A stretch of DNA of 64,000 nt, from assembly GCA_965220625.1 (NCBI GenBank), contig CBDCQN010000003.1:1162186-1226185 (forward strand), in the 5' to 3' direction. Below the pieces are notes generated by a model that saw only the letters and a list, made by a program, of their open reading frames with translations, had not been told where the DNA came from and did not search any database. This document shows, in pieces, positions 4,813-54,699 of this stretch. The number at the start of each line of letters is the position of its first letter. The stretch's first letter is position 1. The position numbers and the translations under genes are program-made. Origin of the DNA: Dehalococcoidia bacterium (lineage in GTDB: Bacteria; Chloroflexota; Dehalococcoidia; Lucifugimonadales; UBA3495).

Positions 4813-5991
4813 CTACTCCCCGGTGTACCTGGCGCCCTCTGCAGCGGGCTCGCCAACGGGCCGCCAAGCGAAGCGACCCGAGTAGGGGTTGGCTATTCCC
4901 TCCATCGCGTCGGCGGTCAGCCTTCCCAAAACCGGGGCGAACTTGAAAGCGTGCCCGCTTCCGCCGGTGGACACTGTCAGGCCTTCAATATCCGGGTGCC
5001 TTCCGATGAGGAAGTTTCCATCCCAAGTATCGCAGTAGACGCACATCTTGGAACCGGACAAGGGCATGTCGGCCAATTCCGGGAGAGAGCGGGCCAGGAA
5101 GTCGCGGCACCGGGCTTCGTCACCTTCTTGAAGGACCCGTGGAGCGTCCGGAGGCACCGAGTGTCCCGGCCCGTGGTTGGCTATCTTGAGCACCCCTTCC
5201 TCGTTCGCCGGAAATCCATACCAACCGGACCGAGGCATGTCCGCGCCCCAAGGAGGGAATTGTGGTCCCCGGAAACGCTCGGGATTGGGCGGCCTGAAAT
5301 AGAGAATCGGCTGTCCTGAGGGTCTCATGAAACCGGAGAGTTCGGGCAGCAGCGTCGGCGTCCACACACCGGCCGAGACCACGACCCGGTCGGCGCGGAC
5401 TTGAGAGCCGTCGGCGGCTGTCACGCCACGGACGGCGCCGTTCTCTTGAATCAAGGAGTTTGCCGAAAACCCGGTCCTGACGGCTATCCCGGCCGCCTCC
5501 GCGTCCCTGGCCAACAACGACGTAGCAGTTGCGGCCTCTGCCCAGCCTCCCCGGGGGTTCAGGTACCCGTCGACGTAGTAATCGGAGTTCCATCCGGGGA
5601 ACCGTTGACCGACGGACTCGGCTGACAACCGTTGCAGCGCCCACCCCTGGCCGCTGAGGGTTTCGAAGGATTGTAGCTCGAACCCGCCCCGCTCCAATGG
5701 TTGGCTGCTCAGAAGCATGAAGCCGTCTTCGTGGTAAACGGCCCGGCCCCAGCGGGCATTCCATTGGTGCCAGCCGTCAATCGCCTCGGCCCCCAAGCGG
5801 CTGTACAGCGTGTCCGTGCCGTAATCCATACGGACCATGCGGCTGACGTCGTTCGACGCCGCCGAGGGATGGGGGACCGGGCCGGGGTCAACGACCGTCA
5901 CGCGGTAACCCCGCTCCCGGAGAGCCAGCGCCCCGGTCAACCCGAAAACGCCTGCGCCCACAACGACTACTGCGGTATTCCGCGTCGCCAT
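4813..5991 (-). CDS. FAD-dependent oxidoreductase (DAO / sarcosine-oxidase-like family)
   Basis: N-terminal VVVVGAGVFGLTGALALRERGYRVTVVD is a Rossmann GxGxxG motif. 392 aa. Confidence 0.8.
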   Translation of the reverse strand: MATRNTAVVVVGAGVFGLTGALALRERGYRVTVVDPGPVPHPSAASNDVSRMVRMDYGTDTLYSRLGAEAIDGWHQWNARWGRAVYHEDGFMLLSSQPLERGGFELQSFETLSGQGWALQRLSAESVGQRFPGWNSDYYVDGYLNPRGGWAEAATATSLLARDAEAAGIAVRTGFSANSLIQENGAVRGVTAADGSQVRADRVVVSAGVWTPTLLPELSGFMRPSGQPILYFRPPNPERFRGPQFPPWGADMPRSGWYGFPANEEGVLKIANHGPGHSVPPDAPRVLQEGDEARCRDFLARSLPELADMPLSGSKMCVYCDTWDGNFLIGRHPDIEGLTVSTGGSGHAFKFAPVLGRLTADAMEGIANPYSGRFAWRPVGEPAAEGARYTGE

Positions 5992-5992
5992 C

Positions 5993-6595
5993 TTACCCGG
6001 CCGCTTGGACCATGGCCCTCAGGTCGTCCACGCTCAGGTCTCCCCAGCGTTGCTCACCCCCGATGAGGTAGGTGGGAGTCCCGGTGATGTCCCGGGCCCG
6101 GGCAGCCTGGTATTCCTCCACCACCTGGGCCCGATAATACCCGGACTCCAGCAGGGGCCCCAGTGCCGCCCAGTCGAGACCGCTCTCTTCGGCGAGTGCT
6201 TTAATGACGGCGACATTCCCTAAATCGGCCCGGCGCTCCCAGAATGCTCCCGCAGCCACGTGATGGAAGCGGCCGTCCAATCCCTGCTCTTTGGCGTAGG
6301 CGGTAGCCTCGTGGGCCATCAACGTATTGGGCGACCAACTGGGCCGGTGCATGGTGAGTCCGACGCCCCGGGCCCGCTCTTGCATCGCCGGATTGAGCTC
6401 GGTCTCGGTCTCGCCGTCGAATATCCGGCGGGGTTCGCCCTCAGGAGGCCGGTCAGGCCCCAGCAGGTAGGGGCGGCGATGAATGGTAAGGCTGAACTCT
6501 TGGGCCAATATGTCGAGCCTGCCCAGGCCGACGTAGCAGAAGGGTCAAGTGTAGTCGTGCCAGATGGTGACTTCCACGGATTTGGTCGCAGCCAT
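5993..6595 (-). CDS. DsbA-family (FrnE-like) thiol oxidoreductase with in-frame TGA at the first Cys of CxxC; candidate selenoprotein (alternatively a pseudogene)
   Basis: The ATG at 6595 (preceded by ggaagga) reads MAATKSVEVTIWHDYT-[TGA 6547..6545]-PFCYVGLGRLDILAQEF, in the same frame as the track ORF 5993..6508. The track ORF alone lacks the redox motif. Confidence 0.6.
6512..6532 (-). promoter_or_regulatory. Candidate bacterial SECIS-like hairpin downstream of the in-frame UGA
   Basis: Minus strand GTCGGCC-UGGGCA-GGC(U)CGAC gives a 7 bp stem with one bulged U and a G-rich 6-nt loop. It starts 13 nt after the TGA. Confidence 0.4.
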
Positions 6596-6685
6596 AATTC
6601 CTTCCTGTTCATCTTATTAGCGGTGGGCCAGATAGGGCGGCGCAGGCCCGAACCGTCCGCGATACGGGCCTGCCGGTAAGAGCGA

Positions 6686-7639
6686 TTAGTCGCCGGCCGC
6701 GCTGGGGGCCGCTGCGCGGGCGAAGGCGTTGCCCAATGCGGCGTTGGCCTCGGCCATGGCATCGCCGCCCGCATCGACGACGCCCACCATGCCAAAGAAG
6801 CCGTGAATCATACCGTCGTACCGGGTGGCGGTTGTCTCCACCCCGGCTCCTTCGAGCCGGCAGGCGTAAGACTCTCCTTCATCCCGCAATGGGTCGAATT
6901 CAGCGGTAATCACCAACGCCGGGGGCTGGCCGGCGAGGCTCTGGGCCTGCATCGGGGCGGCGAATGGATTGGAGGCGTCGGCATCGTTTGCCAGGTACTG
7001 GTCCCAATACCAGACCATGCCGTCGCGCAGCAGCATGTACCCCTCGGCATTGTCATTGTAGGAGGGAGTCTCGAAGTTCCGGTCGGTGACCGGGTAGACC
7101 AGCAGTTGGAAGGCGATGTCCGGCCCGTTGCGGTCGGCGGCCATCAAGGAGATGGCGGCGGCCAGGTTGCCGCCGGCGCTGTCGCCCCCCACGGCGATGC
7201 GGGTGGCGTCGCCGTTTATGGACGCCGCGTTGTTCACCGCCCAGACGGTGGCGGCATAGCAGTCTTCCGCCGGGCCGGGGAACTTGGTCTCAGGGGCCAG
7301 CCGGTAGTCCACGGAGACTACCACGCATTCGGCGCCGACACAGAGGTGACGGGCCGATGCATCGGCCGATTCCAGGTCTCCAATCACCCAGCCGCCGCCG
7401 TGGAACCAGGCCAGTATAGGGAACGGCCCCGCCCCTTCCGGAGTGTAGATTCGCACGGGGACATCGCTGTCTGGACCGGGAATGGTCCGGTTTTCCACCT
7501 TGGCGACCTCGGGACCGACGGCACGGGGCCGGGTGCGGGCGTTGGCCCGGGCTTCCTCGGGGGTTACGGTATGCGCCGGGGGCAGGCCGAGGGCGTTAAT
7601 CTGTTCTATTACCGCCTGTGCTTGCGGGTGTAGTGGCAT
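6686..7639 (-). CDS. Alpha/beta hydrolase, HSL-type esterase/lipase
   Basis: HGGGW oxyanion motif and GDSAGG nucleophile elbow. I prefer the ATG at 7639, preceded by ggaggacgacg. Confidence 0.85.
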   Translation of the reverse strand: MPLHPQAQAVIEQINALGLPPAHTVTPEEARANARTRPRAVGPEVAKVENRTIPGPDSDVPVRIYTPEGAGPFPILAWFHGGGWVIGDLESADASARHLCVGAECVVVSVDYRLAPETKFPGPAEDCYAATVWAVNNAASINGDATRIAVGGDSAGGNLAAAISLMAADRNGPDIAFQLLVYPVTDRNFETPSYNDNAEGYMLLRDGMVWYWDQYLANDADASNPFAAPMQAQSLAGQPPALVITAEFDPLRDEGESYACRLEGAGVETTATRYDGMIHGFFGMVGVVDAGGDAMAEANAALGNAFARAAAPSAAGD

Positions 7640-53102: not shown

Positions 53103-54422
53103 CTACGCCGGAGCGCCTTGTTCCACTGGCTCCCGGACACTTTCACCCGGCCTCCGGTCGCCTATCGACAGCACCAGAATGGCCGCCACCGCCAGCAGGA
53201 CGATGTTGGACCAGATGGCGACCTCGTAGTTGCCCCGTTCGTCGTACAGGACACCGCTGAGGTATGCGCCGATTCCGGACCCGATGGGCATCACGGCGAA
53301 CATGGTCCCGTATATCTTCCCCAAGTTGCGGAGGCCGAAACCGTCGGAGGCGTAGGCTGCCGTGATACCCACCACGGCGTTCCACGAGAACCCCACGAGC
53401 AGTACGCCGATCAAGAGGGGCGCGAGGCCAAAGGCCGGGAGCCCGGCAAAAGAGACGCCCATCGACAGCAAGACCACGACGAATCCCACCAACCTGAGCT
53501 GGTAGGAGATGGCCAACCACCGCCGCCGCCCTCGGTTGTCGGACATGTTCCCCAAGTATAGTGCGCCGATGATGGCGGTGGCGCCGATGAGGCTGAACGC
53601 CCCGGCGGCGACCATTGGATGATATCCCAGGTCTCTCGCATAGGTTACGAAATGAGCATTCACGAAGCTCATTGAGTAGCCTCAAACGAAATACCCGAAA
53701 GTCAACCTCTGGAACATCGGGGTCCGTATCGCTTCGCCGAATGTGGAATCGCGGAACGCCGCGGCGGTGCTGTCGGACTTTTCATCGCCGGCCTGCGAAC
53801 CGGACATCGGACGTTCCCCGTAAGCCTGCAGGCCCATGTCCTCGGGACGGTTCCGGATCAACCAGACGCCGATTGGAAGAATCAGCACCATCAATAACAG
53901 CCCCAGGAACAAGTATGCCTGCTGCCAGGTGAACAACACCAAAAAGGCGGACGTGGCGGGCACCAAAAACATCGCTCCAAAGGACCCGGCCCCGCCCACC
54001 AGGCCGAAGGTGACGCCCCGCCGCGACAAGAACCATTCGGCGACGATCTTGATGAGGATAGGGCCGGTGCCCAAGGTGACCCCGATGCTCATCACGCCGA
54101 ACACCAGGTAGAGCTGCCACAGGTTGTTGACCAACGGCAGCATGAGCAGCATCCAGCCCATGATTGCCACGCCCGCCAGCGCGGACCACTTGGCGCTGTA
54201 ACGGTCCGCCAAGTAGCCGGCCACAGGCCGCAGCAGCCCCGAAAGCACGTAGGTGATGGCGAACGCCAAGGAAAGTGTGCCGCGGCTCCAGTCGAACTCC
54301 TCGGTCATCGGCTTCAGGAAGACGCCAAAGGAAAACTGCCCCCCGGCCACACCGAAGACAATCAGGGCGCACCCAACGACAACCCACCAACCGTAGAAGG
54401 TGTTTCTAAAAAGAGAAGGCAT
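53103..54422 (-). CDS. MFS transporter interrupted by one in-frame TGA (53684..53682) at a conserved Cys-Gly position; either a pseudogene or a Sec-recoded gene
   Basis: Track ORFs 53682..54491 and 53103..53672 are in the same frame. The junction reads TFGYFV-[TGA]-GYSMSFVNAHFVTYARDLGY. Together they give about 439 codons and about 12 TM helices. Confidence 0.6.
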
Positions 54423-54471
54423 TTCCTGCTCCCGGGACCGGCTCCGGTCGTAAGCGAATATTAACGGCGGG

Positions 54472-54699
54472 TTAACGCCTTGTCCACGCACTATGCCCCG
54501 GTTTCGCCGAGGCCTGCTGCCATGCCCGATTCCTAGTGCCGGTGATGAACCCGGCGTAGCCCTCGTGGAAGATGTACAAGGCGGAGCAGCCTTGATCCTT
54601 GTTGCCGTCTTCGCCGTGTATCGCCCGCCGGTAGTCGTTGGGAATGGCGGCGCACTCGTGGGTTATGACCCCGGGGTTAAGACGCCTGATTAATTCCAA
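54472..54699 (-). CDS. Small coding-like ORF, or the 3' remnant of a disrupted gene (hypothetical)
   Basis: Strong G/C preference at third codon positions across ...VITHECAAIPNDYRRAIHGEDGNKDQGCSALYIFHEGYAGFITG. Only a TTG start is available. The upstream side abuts a palindromic repeat element. Confidence 0.3.
   Translation of the reverse strand: MELIRRLNPGVITHECAAIPNDYRRAIHGEDGNKDQGCSALYIFHEGYAGFITGTRNRAWQQASAKPGHSAWTRR

Follow-up and report, generated by a model that had tools for sequence, protein, structure and literature searches.

Selenocysteine (Sec)-containing relatives of the thiol-disulfide oxidoreductase DsbA have been known since 2005, when a "DsbA-like protein, COG2761" was described as a new selenoprotein family, with a predicted selenocysteine insertion sequence (SECIS), in a metagenomic study of the Sargasso Sea (PMC1088965). 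The family is also present in genome surveys (PMC1794560; PMC5029168) and is listed as "DsbA-like protein form 1, PF01323, UxxC" in reviews from 2022 (PMC9312934) and 2026 (PMC13188914). In the database BSepDB, for which the search was restricted to species encoding two or more of SelA, SelB, and SelD, Dehalococcoidia bacterium UBA1141 is among the most selenoprotein-rich bacteria, with 49 selenoproteins (PMC13326102). Here, we analyze a DsbA-like gene with an in-frame TGA from a Dehalococcoidia bacterium. The gene lies in a stretch of 64,000 nucleotides (GenBank assembly GCA_965220625.1, contig CBDCQN010000003.1, positions 1,162,186 to 1,226,185 of the forward strand), which we call the window; all coordinates given below count from its first letter.

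An original prediction made from the sequence of the window proposed that UGA replaces the first Cys of the CxxC motif in this gene and that the product is a selenoprotein. It also referred to Sec-containing DsbA-like proteins inferred from marine metagenomes, which the literature bears out (PMC1088965; PMC13188914). The conservation of the TGA, the Cys-containing homologs, and a downstream hairpin all support the proposal. On comparative sequence evidence, we consider it highly probable that this is a genuine gene for a Sec-containing DsbA/FrnE-like oxidoreductase with a functional SECIS. The gene is a new member of a selenoprotein family known since 2005, and the result is an annotation correction rather than a discovery.

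Gene structure and protein fold

Translation of the minus strand gives a reading frame from ATG at 6595..6593 to TAA at 5995..5993 that holds a single in-frame TGA, at 6547..6545. The coding sequence (5993..6595) comprises 200 codons plus TAA, and the predicted Sec is residue 17. The surrounding sequence translates as MAATKSVEVTIWHDYT[TGA]PFCYVGLGRLD, in which the UGA occupies the first, nucleophilic position of a U-P-F-C redox motif. The resolving cysteine of this UxxC motif is Cys20, encoded by TGC at 6536..6538. A Shine-Dalgarno-like ggaagga (6599..6605, minus strand) is located 3 nt 5' of the ATG. The automatic open reading frame (ORF) begins at TTG 6508, which leaves out the redox motif. 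The original prediction had pointed to this ATG, the ggaagga, the in-frame TGA, and the truncated TTG ORF, and each of them is found in the sequence.

When the TGA is taken as Cys, the Pfam domain DSBA (PF01323) matches residues 9-194 over profile positions 2-188 of 191 (E=4e-30), a near full-length match that scores 105 bits against a cut-off of 25.6. Because the match spans the TGA, the 5' extension is part of the domain, and its 16 codons are predicted to encode the first beta strand and the active-site loop. No NCBIfam model reaches its cut-off for the DsbA-like protein, which fits the truncated names that its homologs carry at NCBI. At the Joint Genome Institute, the homologs are named "predicted DsbA family dithiol-disulfide isomerase", in agreement with the COG2761 label.

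The window has a GC content of 62%, and TGA ends 14 of the 54 large ORFs that we picked in it. TGA thus serves as a normal stop in this DNA and has not been globally reassigned. The original prediction had made the same point with four examples of TGA stops elsewhere in the window, and all four are TGA on one or the other strand.

By sequence, FrnE of Deinococcus radiodurans (PDB 5CNW) is the closest protein of solved structure, with an E-value of 1e-13 and an identity of 28-29%. The alignment places CPWC against UPFC and also matches the cis-Pro loop, G-[TV]-P (GTPTY versus GVPFF). We modeled the fold on a Cys-form ortholog, P0002, that is 69% identical to the window protein. The model has a predicted local distance difference test score (pLDDT) of 90.3 and a predicted template modeling score (pTM) of 0.86. 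Strand beta-1 covers residues 8-13, and residue 17 stands directly before helix 18-34, at the N-terminus of alpha-1; a helical insert, beta-3 and beta-4, and a C-terminal helix follow. A Foldseek search with this model returned FrnE as the top match, at template modeling (TM) scores of 0.80-0.84, with SCO1869 next. The window protein itself starts MAATKSVEVTIW, with beta-1 from residue 7-8, and by inspection it has no hydrophobic leader or signal peptide. It ends at residue 200 (...RAMVQAAG) and has no Cys after Cys20.

Conservation of the TGA and the upstream coding sequence

A scan of a collection with one genome per species yielded 58 related loci, almost all from metagenome-assembled genomes (MAGs) of Dehalococcoidia. 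TGA stands at the homologous codon in 55 of them. The three loci that lack it are L054, which has CGA; L057, which encodes a 38%-identical CPHS protein; and L058, which encodes a distant DsbA. The resolving Cys is invariant in all loci. In the stretch 5' of the TGA, the encoded residues are conserved (V.V..W.DYT) and codon choice varies synonymously across loci, with four codons each for the Val at -10 and the Thr at -7. An ATG is present exactly 16 codons 5' of the TGA in 43 of the 55 loci, and a purine-rich Shine-Dalgarno-like motif precedes the ATG in 46 of the 55. All 55 related loci keep the TGA together with the coding sequence 5' of it and the hairpin described below, in favor of the original prediction.

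As a control for chance, the window and 61 related loci were screened for in-frame TGAs with open flanks, and 9,284 of these were compared. Only the DsbA group is both conserved and set in a protein-like context; the other groups are Arg-, Pro-, and Ser-rich off-frame artifacts. A scan of the flanks of the 58 loci for further conserved in-frame TGAs returned off-frame artifacts only.

This conservation bears directly on the simplest alternative, that the TGA arose as an error in sequencing or assembly, or that a recent mutation of TGC or TGT has turned the gene into a pseudogene. A single substitution turns TGC into TGA, and the sequence probably comes from a long-read metagenome assembly, given contig names such as ctg222507_6x_l, a contig of ena:ERZ25072076 on which the identical gene is found. 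However, the 55 loci with TGA are independent assemblies from several projects and sequencing technologies, they share 55-96% protein identity, and the gene is otherwise intact. Given the conservation of the TGA, the start, and the upstream codons, error and pseudogene formation are therefore excluded; the comparative data refute this explanation, and its probability is negligible.

Full-length homologs among the matches of the protein search are limited to P0002, P0102, and P0118, which read DYTCP[FW]CYV and have Cys at the TGA position. Cys is also found at this position in FrnE (DIACPWCYIG) and in approximately 45 more distant metagenomic Cys forms. If the UGA encodes Sec, Cys-containing homologs should align Cys to it, and P0002, P0102, P0118, and FrnE all do.

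A second alternative is that the UGA terminates translation, that the actual product is a protein of approximately 171-180 residues started at a GTG or TTG past the motif, and that the 16 upstream codons are a leader peptide or are untranslated. Database annotation agrees with it: nearly all homologs in the protein search, including entries named "DsbA family protein" at NCBI, are called at 165-182 residues, or 80-90% of the query, and in many loci a GTG (Val) just past the motif could serve as a start. The upstream codons themselves argue otherwise: they match the beta-1 strand and active-site motif of DSBA, they are conserved as protein with synonymous variation, and a conserved ATG and Shine-Dalgarno-like motif precede them. 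In Cys-form homologs, the upstream part runs on without a break into the remaining protein sequence. In addition, loss of beta-1 and the whole redox motif would leave a DsbA fold without function, yet the rest of the gene is under clear purifying selection across 55 loci. Every one of the stops is TGA, with no case of TAA or TAG. The conservation of the TGA, the start, and the upstream sequence therefore makes a truncated product that begins after the motif very unlikely.

Two further observations concern individual loci. In L054 (L054:10001-10596; CBDEFY010000001.1), a Dehalococcoidia ortholog, CGA (Arg) takes the place of TGA, and T-to-P and W-to-L changes are found just upstream (DYPRPYC). 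The downstream hairpin sequence is retained despite the CGA. This locus is probably a degenerating copy or a case of Sec loss. Separately, L017 and L056 share a contig (CBDCFB010000002.1), with L056 a second, partial Sec-DsbA locus at the very end of it; the 66-mer 3' of the TGA in L056 is identical to that of L017. The end of the contig may have been duplicated, or the contig may be circular and its ends overlap in the assembly.

A SECIS-like hairpin under selection at synonymous sites

A SECIS-like hairpin is located at 6532..6512 on the minus strand, where it overlaps the codons for V-G-L-G-R-L-D. The 5' arm is formed by 6532..6525, the apical loop, GGGC, by 6524..6521, and the 3' arm by 6520..6517 together with 6515..6512, leaving U 6516 bulged. 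The position, the bulged U, and the G-rich loop are as originally proposed; the stem had been given as 7 bp and instead folds as 8 bp. RNAalifold, applied to 56 sequences of 66 nt from the TGA, independently yields the same hairpin. Paired cells in the hairpin amount to 91%, compared to 22-54% when the 3' partner is slid. Pair 21:30 covaries, with CG in 46, UA in 5, and UG in 2 of 53 distinct rows; L033 and the L049/51/52/53 group have the compensatory U-A form.

The consensus for bacterial SECIS elements (bSECIS) has an apical loop of 3-9 nt with G at loop positions 1-2, an upper stem of 4-16 bp, a UGA-to-loop distance of 16-37 nt, and a minimum free energy (MFE) of at most -7.5 kcal/mol (PMC13188914). 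The hairpin in the window falls within all four constraints of this model. Its loop has 4 nt (GGGC), its upper stem has 4 bp and is followed by the bulge and 4 more bp, its spacing is 20 nt, and its MFE is -11.5 kcal/mol for a 28-nt segment. The prediction of a SECIS-like hairpin just 3' of the UGA thus agrees with the published constraints for bacteria.

Synonymous sites provide decisive evidence for an RNA-level constraint on the hairpin. Across 54 distinct genes, the mean synonymous diversity is 0.46. The lowest value in the gene, 0.14, is found at codons -3 to +3 around the UGA, and the second lowest, 0.155, at codons +6 to +11, in the hairpin. All 53 distinct sequences use AGG or AGA for the Arg at +9, compared to a dominance of CGN elsewhere in the gene. 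Leu is likewise fixed as CTC at +10 (53 of 53) and as CTG at +7 (51 of 51). A clade of 26 Cys-form relatives (CPWCYVGWARLE) from a metagenome scan served as a control. The amino acids at the hairpin positions are equally invariant in this clade, but synonymous diversity over codons +5 to +11 is 0.54, compared to 0.21 in the Sec clade.

The codons immediately 5' of the UGA show a related pattern. In both genes of the window with an in-frame TGA, the DsbA-like gene (6548..6556, minus strand) and a major facilitator superfamily (MFS) transporter gene described below (53685..53690, minus strand), these codons are synonymously frozen and end in U. ACT precedes the DsbA TGA in 50 of 53 sequences, and GTT precedes the MFS TGA in 9 of 9. 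At the other conserved Thr positions of the DsbA-like gene, ACT is a minority Thr codon. These findings suggest that the 5' context of the Sec-UGA is under selection in this lineage.

Proposed decoding of the TGA

We propose that the ribosome would initiate at ATG 6595 and read 16 codons before reaching the UGA at 6547..6545. There, Sec-tRNA(Sec) would be brought by the Sec-specific elongation factor SelB, which would be held by the mRNA hairpin at 6532..6512, with the GGGC loop 20 nt past the UGA. Elongation would then proceed to TAA 5993 to give a protein of 200 residues. Sec17 is expected at the N-terminus of helix alpha-1 in a thioredoxin fold with a helical insert, where it could form with Cys20 a selenenylsulfide/selenol-thiol redox pair for thiol-disulfide exchange. 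We infer the roles of SelB and tRNA-Sec as decoders, as well as the chemistry of the Sec-Cys pair. Likewise, the presence of Sec machinery in this genome would be expected from relatives and the literature.

Several of our results weigh against Sec decoding. We detected no selA, selB, selD, or tRNA-Sec in the 64-kb window or in approximately 1.2 Mb of related flanks. ARAGORN found no tRNA-Sec in the window and the 58 loci with 20-kb flanks; tblastn with approximate queries for Escherichia coli SelA, SelB, and SelD against the window and the related DNA produced one weak GTPase match only; and Pfam searches revealed no Sec-pathway genes among the picked ORFs of the window from 15.5 kb and, for the first 16.5 kb, the called genes of L061. 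Rfam gave no SECIS match at the gathering threshold over the whole window, and with E<=10 at both TGA regions the sole SECIS match, to SECIS_3, was on the wrong strand and at chance level. Only one base pair of the hairpin covaries, and in a modest control 19 of 500 shuffles reached the observed score. The hairpin is also no more stable than shuffled sequences (z = 0.18) in this GC-rich sequence. Finally, the closest Cys forms, L059 and L060, keep a similar hairpin, and distant Cys forms often fold at this position.

Two lines of evidence were dropped as a result. Folding energy was abandoned as evidence for the hairpin on the basis of the comparison with shuffles, and the significance of the hairpin rests on its conservation. 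The presence of a hairpin was abandoned as a means of telling Sec forms from Cys forms, given that L059, L060, and many distant Cys forms fold as well. The hairpin alone therefore proves little, and we used the contrast at synonymous sites instead.

The closest Cys homologs deserve a separate description. At L059:2044-2652 and L060:4524-5123, which encode P0002 and P0118, a stable hairpin occupies the SECIS position. CTG in place of CTC removes the bulged U in both, and P0002 also has CGG for AGG. These hairpins may be fossil SECIS elements left after conversion of Sec to Cys, or they may be a by-product of the G-L-x-R-L codons.

A third alternative accepts read-through but has a near-cognate or suppressor tRNA insert Trp, Cys, or Arg at the UGA; the hairpin would then stimulate read-through in general. 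It would account for the lack of detected Sec machinery in the window and related flanks, and the CGA (Arg) of L054 shows that at least one copy has a residue other than Cys or Sec. The latter copy, with its W-to-L and T-to-P changes beside the site, looks degenerate. The site is that of the nucleophilic redox Cys, a classic position for exchange between Sec and Cys, in an established selenoprotein family, and the hairpin fits the SelB-type bSECIS model. Furthermore, one of the loci with TGA, L044, derives from the UBA1141 MAG, so that the same TGA is found in a relative with 49 reported selenoproteins and Sec pathway genes. We therefore regard a non-Sec read-through as highly improbable, to about the same degree as termination at the UGA. 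RNA-dependent Cys biosynthesis (PMC5424206) was considered as another mechanism for reading UGA as Cys in Dehalococcoidia and was judged not relevant.

A second in-frame TGA in a transporter gene

Two scans of the window for further genes interrupted by TGA identified only the DsbA-like gene and an OFA/MCT-like MFS transporter gene as credible. Two MFS ORFs in the same frame (53682..54491 and 53103..53672, minus strand) are parted only by the TGA at 53684..53682. Read through from ATG 54422, the gene (53103..54422, minus strand) encodes 439 residues. The protein is closest to the L-lactate and oxalate/formate families of MFS transporters (PDB 6G9X).

The best 120 homologs listed, which are from Chloroflexota and 62-91% identical, all end at the TGA position, and several of them share contigs with Sec-DsbA loci. 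For the eight distinct orthologs with DNA sequence, the TGA is in frame in all eight. The surrounding sequence, FGYFV[TGA]GYSMSFVNAHF, is invariant in the orthologs except in L115 and L116, where the Phe five residues 5' of the TGA is Leu. Three codons separate the TGA from the next ATG, and their only variation is synonymous, at third positions (all four Gly codons, TAY, and TCN). Translation through the TGA is therefore favored over a split gene with a restart. Cys aligns to the TGA in 76 of 137 full-length representatives (55%), with Ala next at 10. The site belongs to the helix that opens the C-terminal half, presumably transmembrane helix 7. A hairpin with invariant nucleotides is present 3' of the TGA (53671..53653), and its fit to the bSECIS model is only marginal.

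On this sequence pattern, the TGA/Cys pair of the transporter would constitute independent evidence for Sec decoding of UGA in this organism. The MFS family is not listed in the selenoprotein catalogs and reviews from 2005-2026 that we surveyed, and the gene is a candidate for an undescribed selenoprotein family. One interpretation is that the DsbA-like gene is one part of a large, partly cataloged Dehalococcoidia selenoproteome that includes this transporter; we see this as a realistic prospect, if still somewhat short of probable. If the transporter family is indeed undescribed and uses Sec, selenoproteins would gain a new family, and with it the first case of selenocysteine in a membrane helix of a major-facilitator transporter.

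Two more distant, short MFS representatives, P0311 (248 residues) and P0321 (241 residues), are approximately 41% identical to the window MFS protein, and both stop at this point of the helix (...LTAGFFT and ...LTAGIFA). An in-frame stop may thus reach further MFS subfamilies.

Genomic neighborhood

The DsbA-like gene is flanked on the same strand by an esterase gene and an oxidoreductase gene. Upstream, at 6686..7639 (minus strand), is an esterase of the hormone-sensitive lipase family (LipP1 family), which matches Pfam Abhydrolase_3 at E=4e-76 and the NCBIfam model LipP1 with 422 bits against a cut-off of 350; in L061 it is called as a gene of 317 amino acids. Downstream, at 4813..5991 (minus strand), is a flavin adenine dinucleotide (FAD)-dependent oxidoreductase, DAO- or sarcosine-oxidase-like (Pfam DAO, E=6e-51), whose nearest NCBIfam match, N-methyl-L-tryptophan oxidase, is below the cut-off.

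The order of esterase, Sec-DsbA-like gene, and FAD oxidoreductase (4813..7639 of the window, minus strand) is found in approximately 47 loci with an equivalent region, and the Cys-form locus L059 has the same three-gene order. Considered singly, the FAD oxidoreductase is directly downstream in most related loci and the esterase upstream in nearly all. We confirmed that the FAD oxidoreductase starts at 5991, with 1 nt between it and the stop of the DsbA-like gene. The original prediction took this spacing to suggest co-translation; the adjacency stands, whereas conserved operon-like adjacency describes it better than co-translation. The three-gene order and the 1-nt gap support an operon-like unit but do not specify a function; a functional tie between the DsbA-like protein and its esterase and FAD oxidoreductase neighbors is at most a possibility.

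Comparison with known systems

Nearly all database copies of this protein are truncated to 165-182 residues and lack the active site. Functional or metabolic inference from such entries misses a selenium-dependent redox enzyme. By our analysis, 53 or more Dehalococcoidia species carry a well-supported gene of the Sec-DsbA-like type, clustered with an esterase and an FAD amine-oxidase-like enzyme, which fits reports of unusually large selenoproteomes in some Dehalococcoidia. The UGA/Cys pair of the MFS transporter is the more consequential item, as it would, if confirmed, extend selenocysteine to the membrane helix of a secondary transporter.

Within the DsbA superfamily, sequence and fold comparisons place the window protein in what is probably its FrnE-like (COG2761) cytoplasmic branch. 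Periplasmic DsbA of the E. coli type has an N-terminal signal peptide, whereas the window protein does not. FrnE (PDB 5CNW, 5COH, 5CP1, and 5XWH) is a cytoplasmic disulfide oxidoreductase of the DsbA-like type that, like the window protein, has no signal peptide. The two differ in the active site, which has Cys in FrnE and predicted Sec here, and in length. FrnE has 260 amino acids, approximately 60 more than the window protein, and these include a C-terminal tail with Cys239 (named in the title of 5CP1) that the window protein lacks. The Cys tail may be specific to Deinococcus rather than a defining feature of the family.

The same fold is found in 2-hydroxychromene-2-carboxylate isomerase and the kappa-class glutathione S-transferases (PDB 2IMD, 3FZ5, and 3RPP), which match at TM scores of 0.67-0.74 and only weakly by sequence. 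These enzymes are not known to rely on a CxxC dithiol-disulfide pair for redox chemistry. The window protein retains a complete UxxC, and they are relatives in fold, not functional analogs.

Among described SECIS elements, that of E. coli fdhF, where UGA recoding depends on SelB, is similarly an intragenic stem-loop approximately 11-12 nt after the UGA, with a small G-rich loop and a bulged U. Its loop is GGUC, compared to GGGC here, and its U is bulged on the 5' side of the stem rather than the 3' side. Beyond the loop there is no sequence similarity between the two hairpins, and binding of SelB to the window hairpin is a prediction.

The closest described system remains the DsbA-like selenoprotein form 1, to which we assign the window gene by domain and motif; the gene may be orthologous to the published representative (NIP15863.1) and to the Sargasso sequences. 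The window clade is specific to Dehalococcoidia and occurs in a cluster of esterase, Sec-DsbA, and FAD oxidoreductase genes that is unmentioned in the DsbA-like selenoprotein literature we surveyed. In common with form 1, it has the PF01323 domain, a UxxC motif with Sec in place of the first Cys, a bacterial SECIS predicted within the coding sequence, and a history of routine misannotation as a truncated protein.

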